IMG/VR virus record: IMGVR_UViG_3300008117_000079
From: a virus
Length of the DNA: 64,000 nt
Strand: one strand, 5' to 3'
Part shown: piece after piece, positions 1-52,793 of the stretch
Numbering within the stretch: the stretch's first letter is position 1
Layout of the letters: each line of letters opens with the position of its first letter
Translations under genes and position numbers: made by a program
The notes under the pieces: model-generated
Databases searched by the model: none
The model's input: the letters and a program-made list of their open reading frames with translations, nothing else
Told to the model about the DNA's origin: nothing

Positions 1-283
1 CAATAAAAAAACCGACAGCAAGTACATTATGAATTGTGACATAATCCTCAACTGAAAAAACGGTTAAAAGTAAAAGAAGTACTGCTGGTATTCGCCAATG
101 AGGTAAATCAAAAAAGAAATAACTTACAAGTGCGTTTGTAAAAATAAAAAGTGGTTGTAATGGTGTGTTCCAAGATTGTGAAAGTGAAATTAAGTCTCCA
201 CAAGTAAAATAAATAATAAAAGGTTGTAATACTGCGATTAATGCGGTAAACAACCTTTTATATAGTTCAAAATTACTTATCAT
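1..283 (-). CDS. hydrophobic membrane protein, N-terminal part (continues beyond window start)
   Basis: Minus-strand frame open from ATG at 283..281 (overlapping stop of upstream gene as ATGA) to position 1 with no stop; translation MISNFELYKRLFTALIAVLQPFIIYFTCGDL... is strongly hydrophobic. Not in ORF track because truncated by window edge. Confidence 0.3.
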   Translation of the reverse strand, partial: MISNFELYKRLFTALIAVLQPFIIYFTCGDLISLSQSWNTPLQPLFIFTNALVSYFFFDLPHWRIPAVLLLLLTVFSVEDYVTIHNVLAVGFFI

Positions 284-1053
284 CTAATAACCTTTCTCAT
301 TGTCCCATCATCATATATTTCTACATAAACATCAGAAATTTTAAGTTTTTCAGGATCAATTTCCTGACCATTTAAATTAACATATTTAATTATAGTTTTT
401 TTACTTTCTAAATCTATATTATTTATAGTTATTGGTCCAAATGTGTCATAAACACCATTTAAATCATATTGTTGTAATCTATAATAGTTTATGTTTGGGT
501 CAACTTTAAAATCAACAACATCGTAGGTTATTTCTTGTGTTGAATTTCCTGCTGCGTTTAGTGTTGCGATAGTAGTCCATATTTCACCATCTCTACTTTT
601 TTGTAGGTTAAAGTGGCTTGTATTTTGTTCAGATACAGTTGACCAAAATAAATAATTATTTGGACCTTTATTCACACCATTAAAAGTTGATAATTCAACA
701 GGTAATGGGTTTGGATCTGAAAGTGCTATTTTTATATTTGGTCTAAGACTAGATTGTACACCATTTGACGTGGGATATGACGCATCTTGGTGACTATACC
801 CTACCGTATTAGTTTTTGATGTGTAATAAAACCAAGGTTCGTCAAAAGTATATGTACCATTTCTATTTTCCCATTTTATAAGTAAGTTATTTGTGTTATT
901 CCAAGGAAATGGTGTTTGTAGTGCAATTTCGTTCCACCCAATATTCCAAGTAACACTACCATCATAAACCAATGTATAGTTAGATGATACATAATTTGTT
1001 TGTGCGTTTTCACTAACCGGTGAGGGTAATACTGATAGTGTTGTGTGACCCAT
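280..1053 (-). CDS. secreted protein with T9SS C-terminal sorting domain (probably C-terminal half of a frameshifted gene with 1101..1709)
   Basis: C-terminus ...KYVNLNGQEIDPEKLKISDVYVEIYDDGTMRKVIR matches Por_Secre_tail/T9SS CTD pattern (LxGxxV...GxYxxxxxxGxxxK). No signal peptide of its own. The same frame stays open upstream to 1136, overlapping the end of 1101..1709. Confidence 0.5.
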   Translation of the reverse strand: MGHTTLSVLPSPVSENAQTNYVSSNYTLVYDGSVTWNIGWNEIALQTPFPWNNTNNLLIKWENRNGTYTFDEPWFYYTSKTNTVGYSHQDASYPTSNGVQSSLRPNIKIALSDPNPLPVELSTFNGVNKGPNNYLFWSTVSEQNTSHFNLQKSRDGEIWTTIATLNAAGNSTQEITYDVVDFKVDPNINYYRLQQYDLNGVYDTFGPITINNIDLESKKTIIKYVNLNGQEIDPEKLKISDVYVEIYDDGTMRKVIR

Positions 1054-1100
1054 ATATATTTTTTGGTTTGTTGCGGTATAAGGACCTGGTGTGGTTGGGT

Positions 1101-1709
1101 CTACTTGGAAACGTATTTTTGTAATGTTTCCTTCTGTACCGACTGTAAATAAATTATTTCAGACCACCCATATTTGTAGTAATGATTGGCGGGTGCGTTA
1201 TAAACAACACCTTCACCACTACCTATACTTACTATGGTACTTCCTGCCGTACTACCTTTTTGATACTTAACTATTGCACTAGCGTTTATGGTGTTACATG
1301 TACTTGAGGCAGACCAACGAGTTAAAAGTATTGAATAATTACCTGAAGTAGTACAATACCATGTTATTTCTGATTGTGTATTAAAATAATCATCACTCCA
1401 CGCTAAAACTGAACCTCCAGTTGCTGTAGAATATAAACGAAGATATGTATCTACCGTAGTTTGACCTACAGTAGAAAAGGTGTATTCATTACCCGCTTCA
1501 GCATAAAAATTAAACGCTCTACGACCAGCGGCATAAGCTGGCGTATATTGTAAGGTTGTTGTTGGAGTAATTGTCTCATTTGTTGTTGCGGTATTACAAT
1601 ACTGTGACAATCCTGAAAAAGTCATTAATAAAGTAAAAATAAATAATATTAAATTTTTCATAACTACGTTTTTATTATTATAAATATCAAAAATAAATGT
1701 TATAATCAA
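1101..1709 (-). CDS. secreted protein N-terminal part (signal peptide MKNLILFIFTLLMTFSGLSQ); likely 5' half of the gene completed by 280..1053
   Basis: Bacteroidota-type signal peptide ending SQ. The ORF stops at 1101 while the downstream CTD-bearing frame is open from 1136, the classic two-ORF signature of a frameshift. Confidence 0.45.
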   Translation of the reverse strand: MIITFIFDIYNNKNVVMKNLILFIFTLLMTFSGLSQYCNTATTNETITPTTTLQYTPAYAAGRRAFNFYAEAGNEYTFSTVGQTTVDTYLRLYSTATGGSVLAWSDDYFNTQSEITWYCTTSGNYSILLTRWSASSTCNTINASAIVKYQKGSTAGSTIVSIGSGEGVVYNAPANHYYKYGWSEIIYLQSVQKETLQKYVSK

Positions 1710-1728
1710 GTTTTTTGATGTTATTTGT

Positions 1729-2106
1729 TTATACTACCACTTTTAAGTCGGTAAAACTAAGTTCTATATTATCAGAAACAACAAATTCAAATAAATTATT
1801 TGACAATATCTCCAAATCTTTACCTAATTCAAGTAGGTCTTCGTCAGATTCCTCATAAAACCAAATAACATTATTTTGTTTAAGATTGATTAACTTAATT
1901 AAGTGGAGTATAGAATTGGTGTTAATGTGATTTAATTTTACCATAATTGTTTTTATCTCATATTTTTTAATTTGGTTTATTATTAATGACCAAAATAATT
2001 CTGGTTCAAACAATATTGATTTACCCTCAATACTCAAAGTATTGTTGTTATGATTAAAAACAACTTTTGGTGTTGTATTAGTTTTTTCTGATAGTGTTGT
2101 TCTCAT
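1729..2106 (-). CDS. hypothetical protein
   Basis: 125-aa ORF, ATGA overlap with next gene (2103..2426); no recognisable motifs. Confidence 0.4.
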   Translation of the reverse strand: MRTTLSEKTNTTPKVVFNHNNNTLSIEGKSILFEPELFWSLIINQIKKYEIKTIMVKLNHINTNSILHLIKLINLKQNNVIWFYEESDEDLLELGKDLEILSNNLFEFVVSDNIELSFTDLKVVV

Positions 2107-2426
2107 TTTTTTATTTTTATTTCATAACCAAAAAAGGCCGTTAATATTTCTTCTTCATCCTCTTTAACTAAATCATCTTCACAAAGATTTAATATTTCAG
2201 ACAGAGTTGTTTTGTCTTTTATTTCATCAGTTACTTTTTGTTTAAACCTCTGAACCCCCCTAATCATTTCTAAAGTTTCTTCAATATCACTTATGGATTT
2301 TATATTTTTATCGTTAGAACTTTTATTTATCTCATCTAATAGGTCCCGTATAACTTCCCAACAATGGTCATCCACCATATTTATAACCCTAATTTTAGCC
2401 TCTTCAAGAATAAGTTCTATTTTCAT
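2103..2426 (-). CDS. hypothetical acidic protein
   Basis: 107-aa ORF rich in E/D/K, coding-like composition, operon-coupled to neighbour. Confidence 0.4.
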   Translation of the reverse strand: MKIELILEEAKIRVINMVDDHCWEVIRDLLDEINKSSNDKNIKSISDIEETLEMIRGVQRFKQKVTDEIKDKTTLSEILNLCEDDLVKEDEEEILTAFFGYEIKIKK

Positions 2427-2431
2427 TTTTT

Positions 2432-4456
2432 TTAACTTTTATATATTCTTTTTATTACCCCACCCTCAACCATAAAGTAAAAACCAACGGGGGCATTATC
2501 AAATCTAATTTGTTTTCCGTTCATATCTAAAACAATTTCTGGATTTAATTTTTCATTAGTGTTTATTATTTCTCCTATATTTAATATTTCTTCTGTTAAA
2601 TTAGATAAAATTACATTCTCAGAGGACATACATCCATTATCATCTGTAACTAATACCTCATAAAAATCCGATACCACACTATTTAAATCCTCACTAATTT
2701 CACCATGATTCCATTGATAGTTATACGGTTTAGTACCACCAACCACATCTAAATCAATTGATCCAAAGGTATTTTGAGTTGGTTGTACGTAATTTAAACT
2801 TGTAACAAGTAGTTCGGGTTCGTTAATTGTAAAATCTTCCATTACAACACACCCTGATTGGTCTGTTACATTTACCTGATAGTACCCAGGTTTTAAATTT
2901 GTCATAGTACTTAATGTGTTACCATTTGACCATTCATAAGTTAAAGTAGAATCACCACCTTGTGTTGAAACACTTATCCCACCATTTTCAAAACCATAAC
3001 ACGTTACATGATTAATTTCGGATTGTGTTGTTATTTCACTGTAAGATTCAATTTCTCTTTCTGAGTAAAATTTACAACCTTTAACATCTTTAACTTCTAT
3101 ACTATAAAAACCAGTAGAATCTACTTCTATTTTATCATTAGTACTACCATTAGACCATTCAAAAGATAAAGGAACTTGACCTGTAATGTTGTTAAATTTT
3201 GCCTGTCTTTTTGAATCAACACAATTAACATCAGTTATTAGTTCACCCTCAATCGTATTGAATTTTTTTGCCATTAAAACAGCTTTATAAGAATCTAATT
3301 TACCTGAACCTAACATACCAATATAGTTTTGGTTAACTTCATAAATTGAGCTATCAGCAGTTTCTTTAAGAATATACTCAATTTGATCGGGAGTTAAACA
3401 AGGATTAACAGATAACATCAAAGCTACGGTTCCTGAAACAAGTGGTGTGGCGAAAGAAGAACCATTTCCTGTAACATATTGACCCGGTGATGTTGACAAC
3501 ACTATGTCGTATCCAGGAGCCGAAATATCTACTTTATTATTGTGTTGGTGTGTTGAATTTGGGTTGCCGATGAATCTTTCGTGATTGTTGTTCGGTCCAA
3601 CAGATGTAACTGAAATTACGTGTTCGTATGATGCAGGATAAACTTCGTTTACTGACCCACCACAAGTACCACCATTACCAGCTGCAGCAATTATTACAGA
3701 ACCGTTATAATGAACCTCATTTATAACTTCTTGTGCGTAATAGTTAAAATAACAACTAGAAGCCCAACTAGCGTTTATTACTCTTGCTCCTGAATAAGTT
3801 GCTTCAAGTAATTCATTATAATCCATAACTCTTAGTTGTAACTTTGAATTGTAACCAATTGAACTTTTACCGGCGAAATTATTTGTGTTACCTGCAGCTG
3901 TTATAGCTACCGCGGTACCATGAGTATAATCAGTACTATAGTTGTCAATTGTTCTATAAGTAATTTTACCACCAAGATCTTCGTGATTGTGGTAATAGTT
4001 TGCATCTGTAATAGCAATAACTACTGAAGTATCTCCGTGTGTGATATCCCAAGCTTGTTCAGCGTTTATTGAATTAAGTGCGTAATCGTACATAAAAACT
4101 GAGATGTCGTTTGGGGTGTCAAGAGTTTTATATTCAGGACCTAATTCAGGTTTAACAAAATTATTATTTTTAGAAGTTCTTACTAGTAATTCATTAACAT
4201 CACAATTACAATTTATTTGATAAACTTGTTGTAATTCAGAATTATGTGATGATGGAAACGCCTTTTTTATTTCTGTAATACTAAGGTCTGAGATTGAATT
4301 TAAAACCTCAGTTCTTTTTGATTCATAATTTGGGATTTTTACCCATACGTTGTCCTGAGATAAGACACTAATTGTTGTTGTTAAAATTGTTAAAATTGTT
4401 ACTATTAAATTTTTCATAATGTGTATATTTTTTATTGTATACACATAGTTAGTCAT
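2432..4456 (-). CDS. subtilisin-like serine peptidase (S8 family) with N-terminal signal peptide and T9SS C-terminal sorting domain
   Basis: S8 catalytic triad contexts: VVIAITDANYY (Asp), DYTHGTAVAITAAGN (His), GSSFATPLVSGTVALM (Ser; GTSxATP motif). N-terminal hydrophobic signal. C-terminus ...IVLDMNGKQIRFDNAPVGFYFMVEGGVIKRIYKS fits the T9SS CTD consensus. Confidence 0.8.
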   Translation of the reverse strand: MTNYVYTIKNIHIMKNLIVTILTILTTTISVLSQDNVWVKIPNYESKRTEVLNSISDLSITEIKKAFPSSHNSELQQVYQINCNCDVNELLVRTSKNNNFVKPELGPEYKTLDTPNDISVFMYDYALNSINAEQAWDITHGDTSVVIAITDANYYHNHEDLGGKITYRTIDNYSTDYTHGTAVAITAAGNTNNFAGKSSIGYNSKLQLRVMDYNELLEATYSGARVINASWASSCYFNYYAQEVINEVHYNGSVIIAAAGNGGTCGGSVNEVYPASYEHVISVTSVGPNNNHERFIGNPNSTHQHNNKVDISAPGYDIVLSTSPGQYVTGNGSSFATPLVSGTVALMLSVNPCLTPDQIEYILKETADSSIYEVNQNYIGMLGSGKLDSYKAVLMAKKFNTIEGELITDVNCVDSKRQAKFNNITGQVPLSFEWSNGSTNDKIEVDSTGFYSIEVKDVKGCKFYSEREIESYSEITTQSEINHVTCYGFENGGISVSTQGGDSTLTYEWSNGNTLSTMTNLKPGYYQVNVTDQSGCVVMEDFTINEPELLVTSLNYVQPTQNTFGSIDLDVVGGTKPYNYQWNHGEISEDLNSVVSDFYEVLVTDDNGCMSSENVILSNLTEEILNIGEIINTNEKLNPEIVLDMNGKQIRFDNAPVGFYFMVEGGVIKRIYKS

Positions 4457-4588
4457 ATAATGGTATAAAGTCCTTTTGTGGGGGGTATAGTATTTTTAAA
4501 TTAAGGGGTACGCTCTATAGTAGTATAAGTACTACATACGAATGGTTAGGTAAAAATACTTAAATGGGGTAAAATTTTGTATGATAGT

Positions 4589-5590
4589 TTATTTCATAGT
4601 TTTTTCTATAAAACCATCATCATATATAAGTAAATATATTTCACCTTCTTTCATATTTAACACCGCTTGTCCCATTAAATTTGTGATTTTTATAAGTATT
4701 CTATTCTTATGTTCTTTAATGTAGATAATACTAAGATTTTCAAATTTACCATCATAATCTGTTTGTCTTAAAATAAAATATCCAGAACCAATCGTATTTC
4801 TAATTGAATATTTATGTTTACCTTCAGATGGTACATTATATTTTGGTTCAAAATTATACCCATCCATTGAGTGTAATATTGTGTAATAGTCATTATTATA
4901 TTCTGAATATATGTCCCACCATAAACTATCTCTATCTCCTTCAAAAGAGATTAAACTTACCGGTAATGGGGTTGTCATTTGCCACAATTCAAAATTATCT
5001 AACCACCATTCTTCACCTACGGAATTAACTCTAACATAAACTCTTGCGGTAAATTGTGTTACGTTTGTAAATTTTAAACGTATATCAGAATAAGTTCCGT
5101 TTTGTGCTGAATATGTTGTGAGTGTCCCGCTTGCTGTTTTTTGTATTAATGTTGTGTTGTAATTCCATAACGCATTATCATAACCATTAATTTTTATCTC
5201 TTGAACCAAAGTAGTATTATCGGTACTAATATAAAGTAATACGTAATCGGCAATATCAACACCAGCACTTAAAGATGACGATGAACCAAATTTATAAGAC
5301 CCTAATCTAAATCTAAATTCATACTCAAATCCTTGGTCTAATCCTGTGATATTTGGTAAAACATAGACCCCTTCTTCAATGTTTGACGTTCCATTACCGG
5401 TACCGATTAAAGCTGCTGATGATGTACTACTAACAAACGCGTTGGCGTAATAACCGGTATTATTTCCATACCCAACTGACCATCCGCCTAACCAATTGAA
5501 TGATTCAATATAGTCGTATTTTATTAAAGTTTGTGAAAATAAAAATGGTGGGAAAAAAACTATTAAAAAAAATAAAAAAAACTTTTTCAT
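4589..5590 (-). CDS. secreted protein with signal peptide and T9SS C-terminal sorting domain
   Basis: N-terminus MKKFFLFFLIVFFPPFLFSQ (signal peptide). C-terminus ...ITNLMGQAVLNMKEGEIYLLIYDDGFIEKTMK matches the T9SS CTD pattern. Confidence 0.6.
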   Translation of the reverse strand: MKKFFLFFLIVFFPPFLFSQTLIKYDYIESFNWLGGWSVGYGNNTGYYANAFVSSTSSAALIGTGNGTSNIEEGVYVLPNITGLDQGFEYEFRFRLGSYKFGSSSSLSAGVDIADYVLLYISTDNTTLVQEIKINGYDNALWNYNTTLIQKTASGTLTTYSAQNGTYSDIRLKFTNVTQFTARVYVRVNSVGEEWWLDNFELWQMTTPLPVSLISFEGDRDSLWWDIYSEYNNDYYTILHSMDGYNFEPKYNVPSEGKHKYSIRNTIGSGYFILRQTDYDGKFENLSIIYIKEHKNRILIKITNLMGQAVLNMKEGEIYLLIYDDGFIEKTMK

Positions 5591-5683
5591 ATTAACAATA
5601 AATAGATAAAAAGGTTAAAGAATGTAATGATTTATTTAATTATTAACAATAACTTATCATATATGATATTTTATTTAACAAAA

Positions 5684-5714
5684 TAAAAAAAGGTCAGATT
5701 TCTCTGACCTTTTC
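5684..5714 (-). terminator. rho-independent terminator downstream of major capsid gene
   Basis: Minus-strand reading GAAAAGGTCAGAGAAATCTGACCTTTTTTTATTTT: 8-bp GC-containing stem (AGGTCAGA/TCTGACCT), 4-nt loop, followed by a T-tract. Confidence 0.6.
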
Positions 5715-5734
5715 AAGGGTTATTTAAGTTTTGA

Positions 5735-7594
5735 TTATCTCAATTCTCTTAAATCAAATGTACGAACTCCATCAACAGTGATACGAGCGTAGAAACGGTT
5801 GTTAACCATTTTCTTAGCGTATCTTGTCATAATACCTTTGATAGGTGTGAAGTTGAATGGGTTGTACATTGTAGGTGTTAACTGAAGAGGTACGTATGGT
5901 GCGTAGATGTATCCAGTGTCTAACAATGATGTTCCTTTGTGACCCAACAAGATTGTGTTTGGTGGGAAGTAAGGATCACGATAAACTTGGTAACGTCCAG
6001 CAAGAGTACCAACTCTTTCAATACCCATATTGTATTGGTCTTGCTCAGGAGACGCGTTAGATACGTGGAAGTATTCTAAATCGTCAAAGATAGCTGAAAC
6101 TTCAGAAGAAACAACAATCCAGTTAGCACCACCTCTTAATGTAGATTTGTGGATTTGAGCAGACAATTGGTTAATTGCTGTAATCAACGTTTGGTTCCAA
6201 TCTTTTTGAGTGTAAGAAGTTGTTAAACCGTTTACTCTTCTCCAACCATTGTAATCCCAACGTAAGTTCCACGCTGCACCTTTACGTAAATCTCTTAAGA
6301 TTTCACGGTCAATTTCAGCCGCAACTTGTTCAGATAATAAAGCTGTTAATTCAGCTTCAGCGTCAATGTTGTGGAACGCTGCAACGTCTTGAGCTAATTC
6401 TGGAGACCATTGTGCTCTTAATTTTCTTTCAGTAACTGATACTGTAACAGACTCAAGGTCAAAAGAAACCTCTCCGATTTTTTCTTCAAACTCTAGTTCT
6501 TCGTAACGTCTCCAAACAGCAGTAAATGATGTTGCAGATGTGATAGCAGAAAGAGTAGAACCAGTGTACCCATCAAGTGAAGTGTCACCACAAGATGCAC
6601 AAGCAGGACAAGAAAGATCTACTTCAAGAATGATACAACCATTAGCGTTACAGATATTGTTAAAAGAACCACCATTTCCATCAACTGGGAATGTAGTTTG
6701 ATATTGACTACCATAGTCAACAATTCCTTTACCATATTTTTGAGTTACAACTCTAAATAAAAGTGGTGATGCACCAACTGTAGGAACTGGACATACGTTA
6801 GCAGCATCAAATCCTAATCCTGTATTAGTAAGGATTTTAAGGTCAGAAAGGAAAGATTCTGTATCAATTTCATTTCCGTCAGGTCCGATAAGTTTACCAG
6901 CACCTGGGATGTTACTCCACCCACAAAGTTTGATAAGAACTTTTCTTGTGTTACCAACATAAGCAGCGTCGTCATTGTTAGCATCAACTAAGTCACCATT
7001 TGACCATTTTACAACAGTAGCCGCTGCCGTGATAGCAGAAAAACGACCTTTAGAATAATCAAATAGACCAGCAGGATCCAATCCTGGCTCAGCTCCTTCG
7101 TAGAATAAATCATAAAGATTTTTTGAGAAAGGTGCGTTAGCGTTAGGTGCTGTATCAGCTCCTGGGTAACCTTGACCCGGTACGTTATAACCACCATTAA
7201 CCGCTTCAGGAGAACCAATTGGTGGATAGTGAACACTACCAGCTTCATTTGGGTTATATCCTTGGATACGAGGTACAAAGTAGAACAATTTACCAATTGG
7301 TAAGTTCATAGCTTGTACTGATACGATATCGTTAGCTAACAATTTAGAGAAAACTCTTCTAACGATAGGGAAAACAACCGTTTCAAAAGCTCCGTTTGAA
7401 CCTTCTGAAGTTGCTTCGTTAATTAGGTGAGATGCTTGGTTCTCATATAACTGAGCCACGTTCTCTTTTAGATGACCTTTAAGTCCATCAAGGAATCCTA
7501 ATTTATCCCATTTGTTAATTGTATCTTCTTTGATAACTTTAAGGTGCTTAAGACCGATGTTACCAACAAGACCAGATTCTAATAATGCTCCCAT
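5735..7594 (-). CDS. major capsid protein, T4 gp23-like
   Basis: Collinear similarity to T4 gp23 recognised by eye: FPIVRRVFSKLLANDIVSVQAMNLPIGKLFYF vs T4 MGMVRRAIPNLIAFDICGVQPMNSPTGQVFAL. Also IDREILRDL vs INREVVDWI, and a C-terminal ...GxxTRYA...FxARITVDGV tail. Followed by a strong terminator. Confidence 0.9.
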   Translation of the reverse strand: MGALLESGLVGNIGLKHLKVIKEDTINKWDKLGFLDGLKGHLKENVAQLYENQASHLINEATSEGSNGAFETVVFPIVRRVFSKLLANDIVSVQAMNLPIGKLFYFVPRIQGYNPNEAGSVHYPPIGSPEAVNGGYNVPGQGYPGADTAPNANAPFSKNLYDLFYEGAEPGLDPAGLFDYSKGRFSAITAAATVVKWSNGDLVDANNDDAAYVGNTRKVLIKLCGWSNIPGAGKLIGPDGNEIDTESFLSDLKILTNTGLGFDAANVCPVPTVGASPLLFRVVTQKYGKGIVDYGSQYQTTFPVDGNGGSFNNICNANGCIILEVDLSCPACASCGDTSLDGYTGSTLSAITSATSFTAVWRRYEELEFEEKIGEVSFDLESVTVSVTERKLRAQWSPELAQDVAAFHNIDAEAELTALLSEQVAAEIDREILRDLRKGAAWNLRWDYNGWRRVNGLTTSYTQKDWNQTLITAINQLSAQIHKSTLRGGANWIVVSSEVSAIFDDLEYFHVSNASPEQDQYNMGIERVGTLAGRYQVYRDPYFPPNTILLGHKGTSLLDTGYIYAPYVPLQLTPTMYNPFNFTPIKGIMTRYAKKMVNNRFYARITVDGVRTFDLRELR

Positions 7595-7652
7595 TTTCTT
7601 TTTTTTTAATTTATTTTATGTATTTAATAAATACTATGTACTTTTAAAAAGT

Positions 7653-8717
7653 TTATTTTATTTTTCCCATCAAGTCTTTCATTCTCAAAAATTGTGGATT
7701 TTCATACGTTTTAGACTCAATTAAGTTAGCAGCCGAACCAGTACTTGGTGTTTTAGAGACTGTTCTCTCAAATGATTCTGTGATTGTATTTTCCGTAGAT
7801 TTTGGAGATCCTAATTCATCCTTGATAGATTTGTAAAGATTTTTTGATTCTTTTAAAGTATCAACATTGTCAAATCTTCTAAGAATATTAATCTTTTCTT
7901 GTTTTGTTGTTGAATGTTCTGTAAACAATCTAGTTGCATAAGCAAGATTTGAGTTAAATATGGCAACCTCATTTAATTTAGTTCTGAATAGATCAAGAGC
8001 TTTTCTGTATTCTTCATTTTTTGCTCTCAAAACTTCTAATTCTTCAGTACCTTCTTTTCTTAAATGTCTTGGTGCCGCTTTTGGTTTTGGTAAACCTTCT
8101 CTACCCCAATACTTGCCATTAGCCAATGTTCTTGACGCTTCTTTAGTTTCAGTTTTTTTACCTTCAACTTTTTTCATTTTACCATCAAGGTTAGCACCTT
8201 CTTTGTATTCAAATTTTGCTTTACCAGTACCCATAGTTTTGTTAGCAGATTTTTTAACTGTTTTAAATCCACCACCCATATTAGGTTTCTTGTCATATTT
8301 GAATTTAGATGCGTTACCCATTCCGATACCTTTAGGTTTAATTGATTTTTTAGATTCGTAAATTGACTCTTCTACGCCGATTTCGTCTTCTAACTCAGTA
8401 TCGTCTAACTCAAGTTCAAAGATAATTTCATCCTCTTCTTCATCATCAAAAGAAAATTCATCATCCTCTTCTTCATCATCAAAAGAAAATTCATCTTCCT
8501 CTTCTTCATCATCAAAAGAAAATTCATCTTCATCTTTCTCTTCGTCTTTAGAAAAGTAAAAATCAAAATCATCAACTTCTCTTGAATAGAGTTCTTCCAA
8601 TTCTTCATCGGAACCCATTTCAGAAAAATCATTCACTTCAGAAAAATCATCCATTTCAGATTCACCTAATTGTATCAGATATTCGGTATCATTTTCTGTA
8701 TCTGATAGATGTATCAT
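7653..8717 (-). CDS. prohead scaffolding/core protein (gp22-like), highly acidic with tandem DDEEE repeats
   Basis: Sits between the prohead protease and the MCP, as gp22 does in T4. Extremely acidic N-terminal half carries three ~10-aa tandem repeats (FSFDDEEE...), with a K-rich C-terminal half. Confidence 0.55.
   Translation of the reverse strand: MIHLSDTENDTEYLIQLGESEMDDFSEVNDFSEMGSDEELEELYSREVDDFDFYFSKDEEKDEDEFSFDDEEEEDEFSFDDEEEDDEFSFDDEEEDEIIFELELDDTELEDEIGVEESIYESKKSIKPKGIGMGNASKFKYDKKPNMGGGFKTVKKSANKTMGTGKAKFEYKEGANLDGKMKKVEGKKTETKEASRTLANGKYWGREGLPKPKAAPRHLRKEGTEELEVLRAKNEEYRKALDLFRTKLNEVAIFNSNLAYATRLFTEHSTTKQEKINILRRFDNVDTLKESKNLYKSIKDELGSPKSTENTITESFERTVSKTPSTGSAANLIESKTYENPQFLRMKDLMGKIK
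8430..8540. repeat. ~30-33 bp tandem repeat x3 inside scaffold gene
   Basis: ttcatcatcaaaagaaaattcatc(c/t)tcctcttc repeated three times; encodes repeated acidic decapeptides. Confidence 0.7.
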
Positions 8718-8721
8718 TTTG

Positions 8722-9135
8722 TCATCTTTTTTCCATTGCTTTAAACACAGTTAAAACTTCTTCGTCTGAAGCTCCGGTTAAATCAATTGTGTCATCTTCT
8801 GTATCAGTATCAAATTCCATTTCAAAATCATCTTCTGTGTCATCCATGCCAAGCATGTCATCTTCTTCTTCGGAATCATCAACATCTAAATTATCAGTAT
8901 CAATATCTTCCACATCTGTATCAACATCCGTGTCCTCAATATCAACCTCATCGTCTTCAACCTCATCTTGTTCTTTAAGAGATTCTTTTACTAATGAACT
9001 GATTTCTTCCTTCATTGTTGAAGAAAGTATTCCTTCTGCATTCTTGTTAAGAGACTCCTCCAGATTTGAAATCTGAAGTAACGCCTCTTCAATAACATTT
9101 TTATTTTTTGTCATTATTTTGTTTTCTATTAACAA
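8722..9135 (-). CDS. acidic small protein, possible prohead core/internal protein
   Basis: 137 aa, very D/E-rich (DIEDTDVDTDVEDIDTDNLDVDDSEEEDD). Position within the prohead-core gene block. Confidence 0.4.
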   Translation of the reverse strand: MLIENKIMTKNKNVIEEALLQISNLEESLNKNAEGILSSTMKEEISSLVKESLKEQDEVEDDEVDIEDTDVDTDVEDIDTDNLDVDDSEEEDDMLGMDDTEDDFEMEFDTDTEDDTIDLTGASDEEVLTVFKAMEKR

Positions 9136-10794: not shown

Positions 10795-10989
10795 ATGTTA
10801 AAAGTAGAAGTTAAAAGAGGTGATATAGAAAGGGCGTTAAAAGAACTTAAAAGTAAGGTGATTAAAACAAGACAAAATTCCCACCTAAATGATAGACGGG
10901 AATTTAAGAAAAAATCTGTTGTAAAACGTAGCCAGGTTAAAAAAGCAATCTATATTCAGAAACTAAAAATTACTCCTAAAGATTTGTAA
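10795..10989 (+). CDS. rpsU: ribosomal protein bS21 homolog
   Basis: 64-aa basic protein MLKVEVKRGDIERALKELKSKV...REFKKKSVVKRSQVKKAIYIQKLK. Size, charge and motif order (VxV...ERALKxFKxK...REFxEKPS..KR.....A) match bacterial S21. Only plus-strand gene inside the minus-strand head module. Confidence 0.7.
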   Translation: MLKVEVKRGDIERALKELKSKVIKTRQNSHLNDRREFKKKSVVKRSQVKKAIYIQKLKITPKDL

Positions 10990-22089: not shown

Positions 22090-22815
22090 TTATAAGCCAA
22101 ATCTACTTTTTGTCATATTATAATTATAATTTATTTGTGGTTGTGTTAAAGCATAATTAAACACCTCAAAACGACTCAAATACATTTTAGAATAAGAACC
22201 ATCACCCATACTCGTAGGACAATTACTGGCAATGGCGTAATATAAATTTGTACCATTATTATATGGGGCTGCTCTATTGAATGTTAGGGTGCCTGCCGAT
22301 GAACCATTAACATATGCAGTTAATGTTGTGCCATTATAGACCATACCTATATAATACCAATTATTTAAAGGGGTTGCTATTGATGAAGTTATAGAACTAA
22401 TAGCACTACCATCCCACATTCCAAATTTTAAAGTACCACTAACCATTTCAATTTGAGAGTCAAACCAAGCTGTATTTGGTGTTGGTGATGTACCTTGTTC
22501 ACTAAGAATAACACCATTATCCATTGGATAAATCCATAAAAATATAGATGTAACTTCTGATTTTGTTGGTGATGTTCCATTAAAAAAACTATCTAATGCA
22601 GTATTAGTTATTAAGTATTCATTAACACCATCAAAATATATTGACCCTGACGTAAATGCCGAATAGGTTGGTGTATTACTTAACGTTCCATCTGAAACAT
22701 CAAATAAATCGGTAACTACAGAACCGGTTGTTGGATATGAATTTTGATTTGTAAAATCATAACACAAAATTGGTTTAGCTGGTATACTAGATAATATCGC
22801 TTTATATTTATTCAT
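22090..22815 (-). CDS. LamG_3 (concanavalin A-like lectin) domain protein, paralog 1 of 6
   Basis: C-terminal ...MYLSRFEVFNYALTQPQINYNYNMTKSRFGL matches the Laminin_G_3 end signature (IxxxRIYNRALSxxEI) and the conserved terminal xKxRFG[LF]. Divergent copy of the array at 24298-28201. Confidence 0.55.
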   Translation of the reverse strand: MNKYKAILSSIPAKPILCYDFTNQNSYPTTGSVVTDLFDVSDGTLSNTPTYSAFTSGSIYFDGVNEYLITNTALDSFFNGTSPTKSEVTSIFLWIYPMDNGVILSEQGTSPTPNTAWFDSQIEMVSGTLKFGMWDGSAISSITSSIATPLNNWYYIGMVYNGTTLTAYVNGSSAGTLTFNRAAPYNNGTNLYYAIASNCPTSMGDGSYSKMYLSRFEVFNYALTQPQINYNYNMTKSRFGL

Positions 22816-38836: not shown

Positions 38837-40882
38837 ATGGCAATAGAATTCATTGATGACAACGACAAGAACAAGAAAAAAAGTGATAGTGGAACTCCGG
38901 TTCTAGACAACTTTAGTAAAGACTTAAATAAGTTAGCTCAAGAAGGTAAATTAGACCCTGTAATAGGTAGAGAAGATGAAATTATTAGAATTGCACAAAT
39001 TTTATCTAGAAGAAAGAAAAACAACCCTATTATTATCGGTGAACCAGGTTGTGGTAAAACAGCAATTGTAGAAGGGTTGGCAATGATGATTCATAGTGGT
39101 GAATGTCCTAAAAATCTTTCAGAGAAAAGAATTGTTTCCCTTGAGATGAATTCAATTGTTGCCGGTACAAAATATCGTGGACAATTTGAGGAAAGAATGA
39201 AAGTAATAATTGAGGAACTTCAAAGTAATCCAAACATTATTCTTTTTATTGATGAGATTCATACAATGGTTGGTGCTGGTAATAGTTCTGGTTCACTTGA
39301 TGCCTCAAACATCTTTAAACCGGCCCTTTCTAGGGGTGAAATCCAATGTATTGGTGCTACAACCCTTGATGAATATAGAAAGCATTTTGAGAAGGATGGA
39401 GCTCTTGAGAGAAGATTCCAGAAAGTAATTGTAGAACCATCAACAAAGGCTGAAACTTTTCAAATTTTAAAAAATAGTAAAGAAAAGTATGAAGAACATC
39501 ACAAGGTAACATATTCAGACGAATCACTTCTTTTATGTGTAGAACTTGCCGATAGATATATTACAGATCGTGAGTTTCCGGATAAAGCTTTTGATATTAT
39601 TGATGAGGTTGGGTCAAGAATGCAAATTGATATTAAACTTCCTGAAAGTATTGAAAATCTAAAACAAGAACTTCTTGAAATTAAAAAGGAGAAGTCTGAC
39701 GTTATAAAAAAACAGAAATACGAAATGGCTGCTGAGTTAAGGGACCGGGAAAAATCAGTAATGTCATCACTTGATGCCGAAAGATTAAAATTTGAGGAAG
39801 AACTTAGAAATAGTAAAAGAGTAATTCCGGAAGATTTAATTTATGAGGTTGTTTCTAAAATGACTAAAATCCCGGTAAGCAAAATTAATGTTGACGAGAA
39901 AAACTCTCTTGTTAATTTAGAGAACGCACTAAATAGCTATGTAATTGGTCAGGCTGAAGCGGTAACAAAAATATCAAAATCCATTAGAAGAAATAGAATT
40001 GGAATTAAGGACCCAAATAGACCAATTGGTTCATTTATCTTCCTTGGGTCAACCGGTGTTGGTAAAACATATCTTGCAAAGAAACTAGCAAAAGAAATTT
40101 TTGGTAGTGAAGATAGTTTGATTCGTGTTGATATGTCTGAATATCAGGAAAAACATACTATATCAAGGCTTATCGGTTCTCCTCCAGGATATGTTGGTCA
40201 CGAAGAGGGTGGACAGCTTACAGAACAGGTTAAAAATAAACCATACTCTGTTATCTTATTTGATGAGATTGAAAAGGCAAATAAAGATATCTTCTCAACA
40301 CTTCTTCAAATGCTTGATGACGGGCATATGACCGACGGACTTGGAAGAAAAATTAACTTCAAAAATTGTTTAATTATTATGACATCAAATATTGGTGTTA
40401 GAAAATTACAGGATTTTGGAACTGGAGTTGGGTTTAAATCAAATAGTAGTGAAGCAGTAAGAGAAGAAGAAAAAAGAGATATCCTCAAAAAAGAATTAAG
40501 TAAGTTCTTCGCTCCAGAATTCCTAAATAGAATTGATGACGTTATTGTCTTTAACTCGCTTAAAAAAGAGCACGTTGACCGGATTGTTAAAATTGAAATT
40601 GAGAAGTTAGTTAACAGAATTGAGTCAATGAAATATAAAATTACATACGATGAGTCAGTTGTTGAATTGATATCTGAGGTTGGGTTTGATGAACAATTTG
40701 GTGCAAGACCAATTAAAAGGGCAATCCAGGATAAAATTGAAGACCTTATCTCTGAGAAAATATTACTAAATGAAGTTCTAGAAGATGTTGATTATAAATT
40801 GACAGTTGTAGATAAGGAAATTAAGATTGATGTTCTTATTGAGAATAAACCTAAAAGGGGTAGAAAGAAAAAGGAGGGTTAA
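38837..40882 (+). CDS. ClpC/ClpA-family AAA+ chaperone ATPase (two nucleotide-binding domains, no Clp_N domain)
   Basis: D1 Walker [30 protein letters not shown] Walker B. Internal UVR-like linker motif [15 protein letters not shown] as in ClpC. D2 Walker [25 protein letters not shown]. Starts directly at D1, so the N-terminal double Clp_N repeat is absent. Confidence 0.85.
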
Positions 40883-44566: not shown

Positions 44567-45250
44567 TTAGAGAATTTTTTTAATAATTTTTTTTAATCTC
44601 TCATTTTGTTCCCACATTCCCTTATCGGATGCTTCGTATTCCTTCTCAACATCGGCAGCCATTTTTTTGAATAACTTGATTGTTTCTGATTTGTCCAACA
44701 AATCCCCAACTGGTTTAAGGACATAATCATTAGCGATACTCATTAGTGTTGCCGCTAAACCATCATCACTCAAATCTTTTTTATTTTCCTTACCACCAAA
44801 ACCTTTTGTGATTGGTGCTCCATTAATGTATGGTTCTGGATTTACCCAACCACCAGTAACTGATTTTCTTATCTCAAAATGTAAATGTGGTCCTGTTGAC
44901 ATACCCCCACCACCAGAAATACCCTGACCTCCACCGGATTCGGCAATTTTCTCTCCTTTTTTAACCTTATCACCAACATCAACAAGTCTTTTTGTTAAAT
45001 GTGCATAACAAGAAAAAAAGGTTTCACCATCAACATTATGTTTTACAATAATAAAATTTCCATACCCATTTTTGTCTTTCATATCTGATCTAACAACCTC
45101 ACCGTTAGCGACTGATATAACACTTGTTCCGTCTGGAATACCAATATCAATACCATTATGGTGAATAGTGCTACCTTTAACCGGGTGCTTTCTATTCCCA
45201 AATCCAGATGTTTTAACTCCTTTTTTTTCTAATGGATAGACTAAATTCAT
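44567..45250 (-). CDS. M23 (LytM-type) peptidoglycan endopeptidase
   Basis: HNGIDIGIPDGTSVISVANGEVV ... GYGNFIIVKHN ... SGGGGMSTGPHLHFEIR shows the HxxxD and HxH zinc motifs of peptidase M23. Confidence 0.8.
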   Translation of the reverse strand: MNLVYPLEKKGVKTSGFGNRKHPVKGSTIHHNGIDIGIPDGTSVISVANGEVVRSDMKDKNGYGNFIIVKHNVDGETFFSCYAHLTKRLVDVGDKVKKGEKIAESGGGQGISGGGGMSTGPHLHFEIRKSVTGGWVNPEPYINGAPITKGFGGKENKKDLSDDGLAATLMSIANDYVLKPVGDLLDKSETIKLFKKMAADVEKEYEASDKGMWEQNERLKKIIKKIL

Positions 45251-48436: not shown

Positions 48437-48532
48437 TTAATATTTTTTCATTTTTTATTTATTACATATAGGAAAATAAAAAACAACCACACAATATTTC
48501 TATTAATGTGGTTGTTTGCATCTTAAGCGGTG

Positions 48533-48606
48533 TGGACCTTGTAGGGTTTGAACCTACGACTCCTTGATTATGAGTCAAGCACTCTGACCAACTGAGTTAA
48601 AGGTCC
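48533..48606 (-). tRNA. tRNA-Met (anticodon CAT)
   Basis: Cloverleaf GGACCTT-TA-ACTC/AGTTGGTC/AGAGT-G-CTTGA/CTCATAA/TCAAG-GAGTC-GTAGG/TTCAAAC/CCTAC-AAGGTCC-A; all stems pair; CCA not encoded. Confidence 0.75.
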
Positions 48607-48709
48607 GGTTGAGGATGAGAAGTCCTCTGTGTTGTGATTCATACTAGGTTAAATCCAAATCAAGACCATATCCCACCGTAATTCCTTTCTCAAGGGAATA
48701 ACACAACAG

Positions 48710-48789
48710 TACTCCGAGAGGGATTTGAACCCTCACCCCGTAGGAATGCGGCTTAAACGCATCGTGTATACCAATTTCACCATCGGAGC
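48710..48789 (-). tRNA. tRNA-Leu (anticodon TAA)
   Basis: GCTCCGA acceptor pairs with TCGGAGT; anticodon arm ATGCG/TTTAAGC/CGCAT; 11-nt variable region; T-arm GAGGG/TTCAAAT/CCCTC. Confidence 0.6.
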
Positions 48790-48969
48790 ATATTTTAGAA
48801 AATATTTCTTCAGCATTCTACTCCCAGCCCCGAGGAATCGTATCTTACTTAGCCCGTCTCACCGCTGTATGGGTACTGAAGTTAATATTTTCTTTTTTTT
48901 CTACCTATTAAAAGTATAAACAAAACAAATGATACAAACAATAACATATTCATCTTTTAATTGTATTTG

Positions 48970-49069
48970 TAGACAAGAAAGGATTTGAACCTATACGACA
49001 ACTTTTACATTGTCTCGGTACAATCTTAGTTAGATCTACCTTAGCGTCTGCCGATTTCGCCACTTGCCT
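48970..49069 (-). tRNA. tRNA-like gene, ~100 nt, type II-like D-arm, anticodon arm not resolvable
   Basis: Acceptor AGGCAAG/CTTGTCT, D-arm TGGCGAAATCGGCAGACGC, T-arm ATAGG/TTCAAAT/CCTTT. The internal 48 nt (TAAGGTAGATCTAACTAAGATTGTACC + hairpin GACAA-TGTAAAAG-TTGTC) do not fold into a canonical 5-bp/7-nt anticodon arm. Confidence 0.35.
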
Positions 49070-49331
49070 TTGTTAACACCCTAATTTATTCAGCTTACAG
49101 GTGCTCCGGTTGTCCCCACCAAAAAGGTAGGTTAGAAATAGTTTCTTTCGTCCTCAACCCAGGTCGGGCAAACTTTCAGTCCACCTCTGTTGAGATGTGC
49201 GTTTCCACTGTATCTAATACAACTTACTTTCCCAGTCGTTCTCCCTATACGACAATGTACGTTCCCCTACGGATATCACTCCGTTTCTCATTATGTGGGG
49301 CACACTAGGGGGTGATGAACCCTACCACGTG

Positions 49332-49435
49332 TAGTCAGGACAGGATTTGAACCTATAAGAGACCCATTGTTAACCCTCATTTAATGTCTCAACCCCAGGG
49401 TGTTGAGGTGCGTCTACCAATTCCGCCACCTGACT
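49332..49435 (-). tRNA. tRNA-like gene, ~104 nt, type II-like D-arm, 6-bp stem with 8-nt loop (ACCCTGGG) at anticodon position
   Basis: Acceptor AGTCAGG/CCTGACT, D-arm TGGCGGAATTGGTAGACGC (Leu/Ser/Tyr-like), T-arm ATAGG/TTCAAAT/CCTGT. The middle has CTCAAC-ACCCTGGG-GTTGAG followed by a long hairpin GAGAC...(22 nt)...GTCTC. Paralogous in layout to 48970..49069. Confidence 0.35.
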
Positions 49436-49581
49436 ATTTTTTACTGTTCACGTAGAACACACAATCTTTTTTTCGTTTGCTCTTAAAGACTATCTCTTTA
49501 TCTTCCTTAACTTGCCACCATATTCCTATCCAAGCATGACATTTCTTTTCTATTGTATAATTCATAACTTTTAATTTTTTG

Positions 49582-49655
49582 TAGTCCCGACAGGATTCAA
49601 ACCTGTGACCTTCGCCTTAGAAGGGCGTTGCTCTATTCAGCTGAGCTACGGGACC
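49582..49655 (-). tRNA. tRNA-Arg (anticodon TCT)
   Basis: GGTCCCG-TA-GCTC/AGCTGAATA/GAGC-A-ACGCC/CTTCTAA/GGCGA-AGGTC-ACAGG/TTTGAAT/CCTGT-CGGGACT-A; only mismatch A27:A43. Confidence 0.7.
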
Positions 49656-49665
49656 ATATTTTTTG

Positions 49666-49740
49666 TATTCCGTATGGGATTTGAACCCATGATCTCTTCC
49701 GTGAAAGGGAAGTGTCCTAAACCAGCTAGACGAACGGAAC
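49666..49740 (-). tRNA. tRNA-Glu (anticodon TTC)
   Basis: GTTCCGT acceptor; anticodon arm CTTCC/CTTTCAC/GGAAG perfect; T-arm ATGGG/TTCAAAT/CCCAT. Confidence 0.75.
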
Positions 49741-50200
49741 ATAAAACCACATTACAAAACCATAAAGGTACAACTCCTGCGGTCGCGTTGTTCATTACAA
49801 TATTTTAAATCACTTTCGCCCCCTGTATAGACATGCGTCAGATGCTTAAGGTCAGCCTTAACTATTAAGGGAGCCACCCGTGATTTAGATTTTTAAAAAA
49901 TGGTAAGACCTTAAGATTTACTTATTCGTGGGTTACCCCATCCTTACTACCCACACCTCGCCTTTAACATCCGTTCTACCCAAACCATCGTTTATTACCA
50001 GTTAACCTCCCGGAAAACTTTGAGTACCTCCTCAACACGTTAGTCTGATAGGGGCTCCGTTTTACTCATCATTTCTGATTCTCTATGAGAGTCTGCTGAC
50101 GTAGGTCTATCTGCTATCTTACCAATCTATTATTTCAAAGAACTTCTTTCCTTATTTGTTTTACAAAGATAAGGAGAATTTTTCAATCCTCCAAATCTTT

Positions 50201-51103
50201 TTATTTAATATTCAAAAACGTTCCAGAACTGCCTGCCATTGTTGTTGGAAGTTTACCATCCCAAGCATTTGCCTTCAAATACTCAATATACATCGGTGTT
50301 AGTTTTTGTTGTTTCAACTCAATTGCAAGTGATGCCGCTTTTGCGTTGATAATTGTTTCTGCCGAGTCGGCTCTTGCGACAGCCACCTTACGTTTTCCTT
50401 CTGCAATTGCAGCAATTGCTTGTTGCTCGGAGGCTTCAGCTTGTTGGATAGCTTTTGTTTTTGCAATAATTGATTCCTGGAGCGCCTCCGGTGGTGTAAT
50501 GTTTGTTCTAAGTTGTGACACATCAAACCACTTTGTTAATCGTTTATTACACTCAACAACAATTGCCGCTTCAAACTGTTGACGATTAGAAAAAATACTA
50601 TCAACTTCCCATTTATTTGCTTCATCATTAACCGCCCCAACAATTGCGTTTTTAAGCCACCCTTGTTCAATTTCTTTAACACCCAATCGTAGGTTTTCAA
50701 ACATATCACCAATTGCTTCCGGTTTCAACGAGTAGTTAAACGATGGTTTAATAGTTGCTGAGAACCCACCCTTTGTAATTACAACCTGATCATCATACTC
50801 AATATGTTGTTGAAAGGTTGGGAACTCAAGAACTTGCGTGAACCAGGTGTTATAAACAACCCACCCAGTTTTGTACTGATATGAAGCAACCCCTCTTTCA
50901 GATCCGGACAAGTTAACCACAATACCTTTGTGACCGGCGTCAATTCTCTCAAGTGAGTATGGTTGGAATACGCCAATCAATACACCCACAACACCAACAA
51001 CAACTCCTTTTAGAATACTTGAGGACTCATCGTTAATTTTACCTTTTACAATCATCACCCCTGCGATAATCAAAAACACTAATGTTACAATCAAACTAAT
51101 CAT
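50201..51103 (-). CDS. SPFH/band-7 (prohibitin/HflC-like) domain membrane protein
   Basis: N-terminal TM helix (ISLIVTLVFLIIAGVMIV), then an SPFH-type domain and a C-terminal Ala/Glu/Gln-rich coiled coil (AIQQAEASEQQAIAAIAEGKRKVAVARADSAE...) typical of band-7 proteins. GC content noticeably above the phage average. Confidence 0.7.
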   Translation of the reverse strand: MISLIVTLVFLIIAGVMIVKGKINDESSSILKGVVVGVVGVLIGVFQPYSLERIDAGHKGIVVNLSGSERGVASYQYKTGWVVYNTWFTQVLEFPTFQQHIEYDDQVVITKGGFSATIKPSFNYSLKPEAIGDMFENLRLGVKEIEQGWLKNAIVGAVNDEANKWEVDSIFSNRQQFEAAIVVECNKRLTKWFDVSQLRTNITPPEALQESIIAKTKAIQQAEASEQQAIAAIAEGKRKVAVARADSAETIINAKAASLAIELKQQKLTPMYIEYLKANAWDGKLPTTMAGSSGTFLNIK

Positions 51104-51317
51104 TTTCTTTTTCTTTTTTGTTAAATAAATTTGTTATTTCTTTTACTATTAGCTTTATTTGAAAAACGGTGTAGAATAAAGCTATAAAACTAGCACCGAT
51201 TTGTAGGATTTCATCAACCTCCCGGTTGATTACATAACTGAAAAATAAATTCATTATGTAGATGTAAATCATTGTGGTACCTACAACACCCCACAACCCC
51301 AGTTTAAACTTTAACAT
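51096..51317 (-). CDS. small membrane protein upstream of SPFH gene (possible partner protein)
   Basis: The ORF-track ORF 51096..51473 runs through tRNA-Asp. The plausible CDS starts at the internal Met MLKFKLGLWGVVGTTMIYIYIMNLFFSYVINREVDEILQIGASFIALFYTVFQIKLIV... (two hydrophobic helices) and overlaps the SPFH gene start by 8 nt. Confidence 0.3.
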   Translation of the reverse strand: MLKFKLGLWGVVGTTMIYIYIMNLFFSYVINREVDEILQIGASFIALFYTVFQIKLIVKEITNLFNKKEKEND

Positions 51318-51346
51318 TTCATTTTGTTTAGTTTTTAATTGTTTAG

Positions 51347-51418
51347 CGGTCCATCCGGGAATTGAACCCGGAGCACATCCGTGACAGGGATGTATGTTAG
51401 CCACTACACCAATGGACC
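51347..51418 (-). tRNA. tRNA-Asp (anticodon GTC)
   Basis: GGTCCAT acceptor; anticodon arm CATCC/CTGTCAC/GGATG (loop identical to bacterial tRNA-Asp); T-arm CCGGG/TTCAATT/CCCGG. Confidence 0.75.
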
Positions 51419-51927
51419 ATTTTAAGGGTGAACACGGGCCTAGCGTGCCGTCTTTTAGGAAAGGCCCTCCCACCTATCCACCCTTTTTGTTGTAGCAACG
51501 CCTTGGAATCGCACCAAGTTAAACCGGCTTATGAGACCGGTGAGATCCTCTACCTCCCGCCTGCTATATCTGTGATACAGTAGTTGACAACCACACTCGT
51601 TTCACCATCTTTTGTCAACAGGTCTATGAACTTAACGAGTTCACCTTTTCTTACCACCACAATATTTTAAAAAGTTGTGATTTATATGTATCAGCATCAT
51701 TACTCCATTATTAAATGCTTCACGGCGGATTAGACCGTGCTAGTCGGAGCAAGCTAGTTCAACACATACTACCTAAAGTTTTCCCCCTCGCTTTAGTGTA
51801 ATAAATCACAATGTTTTCAAAGAACTTTTTTCCCTTTATCTGGGGGTAGGATACCAATTTCTAAACTTCCTACCCCCATCGTTTGTCTTACAAAGATATG
51901 TCAAATTTTTTAATCTACCAAATCTTT

Positions 51928-52633: not shown

Positions 52634-52707
52634 TACCCCTAGCAGGACTTGAACCTGCAAAATTCAGATCCTAAATCTGACGCGTATACCTATTCCGCCA
52701 TAGGGGC
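52634..52707 (-). tRNA. tRNA with anticodon TAG in a class I (short variable arm) body
   Basis: GCCCCTA-TG-GCGG/AATAGGTATA/CGC-G-TCAGA/TTTAGGA/TCTGA-ATTTT-GCAGG/TTCAAGT/CCTGC-TAGGGGT-A. UAG anticodon would read Leu CUA/CUG but lacks the long variable arm of Leu tRNAs. Confidence 0.5.
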
Positions 52708-52716
52708 ATTTTGTTG

Positions 52717-52789: not shown

Positions 52790-52793
52790 ATAA

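Follow-up and report, generated by a model that had tools for sequence, protein, structure and literature searches.

Phages whose proteins end in sorting signals for the Bacteroidota type IX secretion system (T9SS) have been described before. Bellas et al. (2020; PMC7468147) found genes with T9SS sorting domains in the 76-kb "Cryophage", which those authors called a unique occurrence, and de Jonge et al. (2019; PMC6949934) noted T9SS-sorting-domain proteins adjoining head genes in some of the crAss-like phages. Here we describe a related arrangement in a 64,000-nucleotide stretch of IMG/VR record IMGVR_UViG_3300008117_000079 (the window, for short). Positions 280–5590, just downstream of the major capsid gene, encode three secreted-type proteins: protein A, a subtilase of family S8 and protein C, each ending in a short tail of 35–40 residues. 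An earlier sequence-only reading had taken this segment for phage-borne T9SS cargo and called such a function rarely documented, which is a fair description: there are two earlier mentions, both sequence-based.

As in Cryophage, the carrier is a Bacteroidota phage with several secreted-type proteins that end in a known or candidate T9SS signal, an arrangement that can be read as hijacked secretion. The Cryophage cargo, however, varies between variants of that phage and consists of three genes (for an endoglucanase, a GH39 protein and a PA14 protein) with standard type A domains, whereas here we find a large T4-like phage, an S8 gene fixed beside the capsid gene throughout the clade, and short tails that standard models miss. 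The crAss-like phages are similar in that their sorting-domain proteins adjoin the head module of Bacteroidota phages, but they form another phage group, their proteins are BACON-repeat proteins with standard domains, and neither a protease nor the short tail is described there. What had not been described is a T4-like clade in which an S8 gene regularly adjoins the capsid gene, nor the class of short tails or how large that class is. We give a probability of roughly 0.55 to the reading that this is an export island in a fixed post-capsid slot, whose tails would be derivatives of the T9SS C-terminal domain (CTD) that hand the proteins to the host T9SS.

The sequence-only reading had assigned Por_Secre_tail-like CTDs to all three proteins, and this assignment failed in the HMM search that it had itself named as a refuting test: neither PF18962 nor TIGR04183 gave a significant match at the C-terminus of A, S8 or C, and the sole TIGR04183 match (E=0.53) falls within an SprB repeat. 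When 27 related C-terminal regions were scanned singly, they yielded one PF18962 match, at E=0.21. A recognized sorting domain of the kind that marks phage T9SS cargo in Cryophage is therefore absent from the window proteins themselves; it is present in orthologues on related phage-like contigs (L003, L009, L039–L043, L055, L067, L068, L078 and L079). The window proteins have a smaller unit with three or four strands, roughly half as long as a CTD. That of protein A (40 aa, HKNRILIKITNLMGQAVLNMKEGEIYLLIYDDGFIEKTMK; 4592–4711, on the minus strand, which carries every gene in positions 1–9000 in the ORF listing) is supported by an HMM, AlphaFold2 and hhalign; modeled alone by AlphaFold2 it folds into three strands with a pLDDT of 94.5. 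The HMM, a leave-family-out model built only from distant relatives of protein A, was run against all 516 ORFs of the window. It matched the tail of protein C (KKTIIKYVNLNGQEIDPEKLKISDVYVEIYDDGTMRKVIR, 283–402) with 47.5 bits (E=3e-14) and that of protein A with 36.7 bits and found nothing else significant, so the A and C tails are one module and no accident of sequence. The tail of the S8 protein (EIVLDMNGKQIRFDNAPVGFYFMVEGGVIKRIYKS, 2435–2539), which was recognized from the same tail in related S8 genes and by hhalign, was not matched by this model among the 516 ORFs and is a second variant.

In profile–profile comparisons, hhalign aligned the S8 tail with the A/C tail at a probability of 85% (P=6.5e-6). 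Against canonical CTDs the probabilities were 60% (P=8e-5) for the A/C type, 64% (P=6.6e-5) for the S8 type and 80% (P=1.4e-5) for all tails taken together, values that are modest and come from pairwise tests. For each of the two tail types, the part of the CTD that aligns is its C-terminal two thirds, interrupted by an internal gap of 11–12 residues. Like type A CTDs (PF18962/TIGR04183), the tails stand at the extreme C-terminus of Sec-exported proteins, and they appear to have the elements 'x-D/N-x-x-G-x-x-V', 'G-x-Y' and a terminal Lys; unlike them, they have neither the N-terminal strands with 'YPNP' nor one of the inner strands, and three or four strands take the place of the seven, in ~60–100 residues, of the type A fold. 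Going by inspection against reviews, the tail would retain the strand-loop-strand 'D/N-x-x-G' around the β3–β4 loop (motif B), the G-x-Y strand (motif D) and the final Lys strand (motif E), and would have lost β1, β2 and one inner strand. The CTD is built from a four-stranded sheet, β4-β3-β6-β7, and a three-stranded one, β5-β2-β1 (PMC11285876), and the tail looks like the four-stranded half. Gly14 and Asp32 of the tail are invariant, and the tail is kept across sequences that are only 30–40% identical overall.

Motifs B, D and E are those that have been modeled in contact with PorV (PMC10202324). The account of HBP35 given in that source adds that the last 22 residues of its CTD, containing motifs D and E, were enough to secrete GFP (Shoji et al., 2011). 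As described there, the HBP35 fragment has these two motifs, which the tail would retain, and its secretion was shown by experiment; it is an engineered truncation studied in P. gingivalis, whereas the phage tail is a natural, conserved module on thousands of proteins. As a separate observation, residues 812–837 of the 847 in chain A of PDB 7jvi, a GH10/CBM89 xylanase from a capybara-gut Bacteroidaceae, include KVYNLQGQRVATNYHGIIIT ten residues before the end. This stretch may be a cellular example of the tail, although its match to the tail profile (E=0.32) is not significant.

Protein A (333 aa; 4589–5590) consists of a signal peptide, a jelly-roll domain (residues 21–205), an FN3/Ig-like domain with the pattern 'LPV.L...YYRL.Q.D.DG' (~207–291) and the short tail. 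AlphaFold2 predicts the jelly-roll followed by the Ig/FN3-like domain with a pLDDT of 83.7, and the jelly-roll resembles MAM and ephrin-receptor ligand-binding domains. Because the closest solved folds found by Foldseek are the MAM-Ig module of RPTP-mu (2c9a), the meprin MAM domain, ephrin-receptor ligand-binding domains and the streptococcal adhesin Epf, the model points to a binding-protein architecture. Most of the 64 relatives of protein A end as it does, with ~40 residues of the consensus 'kkvvKiiNllGQEVde.ykGvvieiYsDGs.kKiik', and in a set of 49 A-family proteins the residues G307, D325 and G326 hardly vary. The other ending is found in six of the 64: they are ~60 residues longer, and PF18962 begins exactly where the short tail would, after the common FN3-like domain. 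Genomes of Saprospiraceae, Chitinophagaceae, Hymenobacter, Pedobacter and Flavobacteriales commonly encode an FN3-like domain with a canonical CTD behind it. In a scan of species-representative genomes with a narrower alignment of the FN3-like domain plus tail, 21 Bacteroidota loci matched; all have a canonical CTD after the FN3-like domain and none has the short tail.

The S8 gene (2432–4456) encodes a pre-pro-subtilase of 674 aa counted from the first ATG, although the true start is likely Met14, at 4417, which is invariant among its homologues. The protein matches PF00082 (E=3.5e-29; 102.5 bits against a cut-off of 21.8) and the SprB repeat family PF13573 (E=3.4e-10), and the catalytic triad Asp151/His179/Ser334 is invariant in an alignment of 24 homologues and aligns with those of thermitase and the AK.1 protease (PDB 1dbi). 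The protease is thus as complete as the sequence-only reading had claimed, with an N-terminal pro-region, a catalytic domain at ~114–396, SprB-type repeats at ~405–620 and the tail. Nearly all of the best 120 of its 1214 homologues have the order S8, SprB, PF18962, and orthologues that are 77–78% identical to the window protein carry this canonical domain. The 35-residue tail 'IVLDlNGKQvnlDqA..GyYlvV.nG....KIYKn' is confined, among those 120, to the window protein and three others (P0080, P0086 and P0090). The A and S8 families, which are unrelated, thus both have members in which a canonical CTD stands at the very junction where others have the short tail, and in this sense the two endings are interchangeable. 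Cellular Bacteroidota proteases, 46–49% identical to the window S8, have the same domain order and sit beside two-component regulators, a proton pyrophosphatase and a sulfatase. They are chromosomal, have canonical CTDs and show no linkage to phage genes, whereas the window S8 is phage-borne and short-tailed, a pattern consistent with capture of the gene from Bacteroidota hosts.

All three N-termini have a short basic and hydrophobic segment that ends in a small residue followed by Gln: MKKFFLFFLIVFFPPFLFS in protein A (...FLFS|Q), MKNLIVTILTILTTTISVLS in the S8 protein (...SVLS|Q, counted from Met14) and MKNLILFIFTLLMTFSGLS in protein C (...SGLS|Q, with a likely start at 1661). Signal peptides were called by inspection and with a crude pattern; a hydrophobic run plus x-Gln was seen in 49 of the 54 proteins of the A family, in 115 of the 118 of the S8 family and in 50 of the 53 ORFs that bear a tail in related loci. 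By these means all three window proteins, and over 90% of their homologues, have a Sec signal peptide. That signal peptidase I exposes an N-terminal Gln (the 'Q-rule') is specific to Bacteroidota (PMC5837995), and the same habit has earlier served as an argument that phages of P. gingivalis make use of the host's secretion (PMC10367356). The claim of three consecutive secreted proteins stands as to their number and their Bacteroidota-type signal peptides, and falls short in that two small ORFs lie between S8 and C.

These signals also bear on the alternative that the proteins are associated with the virion, for decoration or host binding, and that their N-terminal hydrophobic segments are not functional signal peptides. 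The genes do adjoin the head module, the T9SS-sorting-domain proteins of crAss-like phages lie beside head genes too (PMC6949934), and the Ig/FN3-like and MAM-like binding domains that the proteins contain are of a sort often seen on phage particles. A signal peptide plus Gln in nearly every homologue would be hard to account for in this way, however, as would an S8 protein built as a secreted zymogen with a pro-region, whose close cellular homologues are ordinary secreted proteases; moreover, a dedicated S77 prohead protease is already encoded. A terminator-like hairpin (12-bp stem plus T run, a pattern match from a consensus scan; 5687–5714, minus strand) also separates the cargo from the capsid gene, directly 3' of which it lies, and suggests that the cargo genes form their own transcription unit. 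We consider a virion location improbable.

Searching 1.84 billion cluster representatives with a 41-position profile of the A/C-type tail gave 2715 proteins at E<=1e-3, 128 of them at E<=1e-10. Nearly all of the best 150 matches cover the full profile length and end at the last residues of their proteins, which range from 40 to 1778 aa, and sampled carriers have signal peptides together with GEVED, CUB, fn3 or PATR domains. The tail is accordingly a large, strictly C-terminal module that is absent from the curated libraries Pfam and NCBIfam. Nor is it exclusive to phages: a cellular-looking contig with genes for a Na+/H+ antiporter and reductases (L014) encodes an intact tail-bearing protein 2 kb from a CUB protein with PF18962, and a contig of a bacterial metagenome-assembled genome (L015) encodes a fragmented one. 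Six repetitive giants (P0329, P0330, P0333, P0335, P0438 and P0475) match only profile positions ~22–39, 6–13 times each; theirs looks like a different repeat that has a 'Y-x-D-G' turn in common with the tail.

Related phages carry the same genes, as had been expected. When IMG/VR was scanned with an alignment, S8 relatives turned up on 42 viral contigs (a single-protein scan of viral contigs had no match). The capsid gene is included in 29 of them, and all 29 have the S8 gene downstream of it on the same strand at a distance below 1.2 kb, usually 170–230 bp. About 27 of the 42 S8 proteins end in the short S8-type tail, ten end in a canonical CTD, and five run off the contig; among the short-tailed ones a Gly/Asn-rich linker often replaces the SprB repeats, so that in many S8 relatives the tail stands alone after this linker. 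At 25 loci further tail- or CTD-bearing genes follow the S8 gene, and phage-like contigs of 283, 301 and 390 kb repeat the theme. In a sister phage (L009) the same slot holds an S8 protein, an SprB protein and a protein with an A-like domain, all three with PF18962, and on another contig (L080) the capsid gene is followed by a 228-aa ORF and a 931-aa GEVED protein with a short tail. One phage-like contig (L003) has an A homologue and an S8 protein, both with PF18962, 1.5 kb apart, and another A homologue with a short tail. Because orthologues with a genuine Por_Secre_tail occupy the same slot, the lineage as such does carry predicted T9SS cargo behind its capsid gene. We also considered that the tail type might be uniform within a genome and track the host; four contigs fitted this, and it was ruled out by L003, L039, L040 and L043, in which both types occur together.

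Under the export reading, the island encodes three pre-proteins: protein A as a binding protein of MAM-like/FN3-like build, the S8 protein as a pre-pro-subtilase, and the multi-domain protein C (broken here). The host's Sec system would export them, with signal peptidase I cleaving before the Gln. Each tail, as an evolutionary derivative of a type A CTD, would then act as a half-domain that passes its protein to the host T9SS, and infected cells would display or release the phage protease and binding proteins. We infer homology of tail and CTD from the modest statistics given above, and likewise T9SS dependence and the biological role; engagement of the T9SS is suggested because that similarity goes together with positional replacement of canonical CTDs and with apparent retention of the motifs linked to secretion. 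As to the role, we would guess that surface proteins used by phages as receptors are remodeled or shaved off; the release of nutrients is an alternative.

Several points weigh against this reading. The first is the failure, reported above, of PF18962 and TIGR04183 to recognize the tails, whether in the window proteins or in their relatives, together with the modest level of the pairwise profile statistics. A unit of 35–40 residues and three or four strands is too small for a seven-stranded sandwich, and in work on P. gingivalis an intact CTD sandwich is argued to be required, and CTDs were not freely exchangeable between species (PMC11285876). The occurrence of both tail types in L003, L039, L040 and L043 means that they may differ in function; a single pathway could explain it if its products had two fates, such as being cleaved by PorU and anchored to lipopolysaccharide (LPS) or not, and so could two pathways. 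Gene C is frameshifted in the window, the host is resolved no further than the phylum Bacteroidota, and the phage T9SS cargo in the literature, that of Cryophage included, is like ours known from sequence alone.

Much of this evidence would also suit a separate C-terminal module, one that binds the outer membrane, LPS or peptidoglycan or mediates oligomerization, on proteins that are exported by Sec and are periplasmic or released by lysis; the likeness to CTDs would then be convergent or too remote to matter. The silence of the CTD models, the report that the seven-stranded sandwich is essential in P. gingivalis, and the confident folding of the tail by itself as a small three-stranded sheet all agree with such a module, and short and canonical tails side by side in one phage genome and in one cellular contig fit two destinations. 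The tail nevertheless takes the position of the canonical CTD in two unrelated families, even between S8 orthologues that are 77% identical; the two tail types match one and the same stretch of the CTD in register, apparently with the motifs tied to secretion kept; and the carriers are the usual kinds of T9SS cargo. On balance we regard a separate module as unlikely, though it is the alternative that we take most seriously.

Returning to export through the T9SS, we propose more tentatively, and at clearly less than even odds, that the tail is a natural minimal T9SS signal that forms a class of its own on thousands of exported proteins, and that it would be especially common in large T4-like Bacteroidota phages, which would use it beside standard CTDs to export a conserved subtilase and variable binding proteins. 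If the tail does work as a signal, it would be the smallest natural T9SS signal and would bear on which parts of the CTD the translocon and PorV read. It would also mark an annotation blind spot of ~2,700 protein clusters missed by Pfam and NCBIfam, and a clade of large phages that reserves a capsid-adjacent slot for proteins exported by the host during infection. Phages might in that way control the surface of infected cells in a phylum of ecological importance, for instance by shaving off receptors, by keeping other phages out or by releasing nutrients. If it is not a secretion signal, it is still a widespread C-terminal module that deserves a name.

In the window, gene C (280–1709) is broken into two ORFs, 1101–1709 and 280–1053, by the lack of 7 bp (AAATTAA on the coding strand) between 1139 and 1138; the site was found by alignment with two contigs ~99.4% identical to the window (L006 and L007), which encode an intact protein C of 462 aa. 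The other frame of gene C is open back to a TGA at ~1155, a few codons upstream of the deletion site, and the deletion may either be genuine variation in the population or have arisen in assembly. The claim that the cargo follows the capsid gene stands for A and then S8, after Gp23, while the third gene is interrupted here. Protein C has an FN3/Ig-like domain (705–403) ahead of its tail; its N-terminal two thirds belong to no recognized family and gave no Pfam, NCBIfam or PDB sequence match. We rejected the idea that C is a GEVED-domain protein, as the GEVED matches sit in other proteins with the common FN3-like domain and tail and there is none in C itself.

The frameshift would suit the view that the tails are decaying remnants of canonical CTDs on genes that are losing their function in the phage, as would the fact that the tails are shorter than every curated CTD. 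A decaying sequence would not be expected to stay strongly conserved over ~2,700 clusters, with Gly14 and Asp32 invariant, and gene C is intact in the near-identical contigs and the protease triad is intact too. We find decay highly improbable.

Two ORFs without signal peptides lie between S8 and C: an acidic one of 107 aa (2103–2426), for which Pfam, NCBIfam and phrog searches gave no family match, and one of 125 aa (1729–2106) of the SiaC family (DUF1987; PF09345, E=2.8e-14). Homologues of the former come after the S8 gene in L064 and L077, and one of the latter does so in L008, which hints that both may be functionally tied to the protease. Downstream of gene C, positions 1–283 hold the 5' part of a gene for a 159-aa multi-pass membrane protein of no known family that continues beyond the window edge (the full ORF is at 14181–14660 of L006). 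Its ATG overlaps the stop codon of gene C (ATGA), which suggests translational coupling.

Phage origin, which the sequence-only reading had assumed, is well supported. The major capsid protein (5735–7594) is of the T4 Gp23 family (PF07068, E=8.2e-73; phrog_138), and profile searches place it in one module with a T4-type portal, a large terminase and an S77 prohead protease, as expected of a T4-like phage; 15 tRNA genes are also present in the window. The capsid protein is 37–46% identical to those of Flavobacterium phage 'immuto', a Microcystis phage and an uncultured phage (~37–40% for cultured phages). Megablast of 9 kb against GenBank phages gave no DNA match, and when cultured phages were searched by tblastn with the S8 and A proteins, only distant Bacillus-phage subtilases and one weak metagenomic match came up. 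The source is an uncultured clade of large T4-like phages infecting Bacteroidota, with the host placed to phylum only.

We also asked whether the 5.6-kb segment might be host chromosome joined to the phage by misassembly, since it sits at the window edge and its cargo genes have cellular homologues. An independent JGI contig has the same order of terminase/portal, capsid gene, A, S8, C and downstream genes, and an ENA contig has it from just upstream of A onward. Contigs ~99.4% identical to the window span the region. The order of capsid gene then S8 recurs in the 29 IMG/VR contigs and in the phage-like contigs of 283 and 301 kb. An exact look-up with the window S8 protein had no match, and a near-identical S8 protein (P0065), which differs from it at three residues, is found on seven contigs, the longest of 170 kb. 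The G+C content of the cargo segment, ~0.30, is like that of much of the window and stays inside the limits seen elsewhere in it, and no compositional break is seen. Given the independent contigs, the gene order and the G+C content, misassembly is very unlikely, the least probable of the alternatives, and the segment is not host chromosome, in line with the initial view.

The T4 late-promoter-like octamer TATAAATA occurs 27 times in the window against 13.7 expected from shuffles, and it is not directly upstream of any of the three cargo genes; a sigma-70-type promoter scan gave fewer matches than the shuffle expectation. Directly upstream of the capsid gene, a 354-aa protein of no family (7653–8717, minus strand) has an extremely acidic N-terminal half with repeated 'DEFSFDDEEE', and its position suggests a scaffold protein. 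Within the head module, a 64-aa ORF on the opposite strand (10795–10989, plus) matches ribosomal protein bS21 with 30.2 bits, against a Pfam threshold of 27, and a bS21-like small gene is at the same location in L006, L009 and L080. Also on the plus strand is a 681-aa Clp/AAA+-type protein (38837–40882; phrog_4871 'ATP-dependent protease', E=6e-239). The 15 tRNA genes cluster at 48532–55456 (minus strand), where the G+C content is higher (~0.36–0.41). Other minus-strand genes encode a Laminin_G_3 (concanavalin-like) protein (22090–22815), an M23 peptidase (44567–45250), an SPFH/Band 7 protein (50201–51103) and a family 2 glycosyltransferase (56514–58166).

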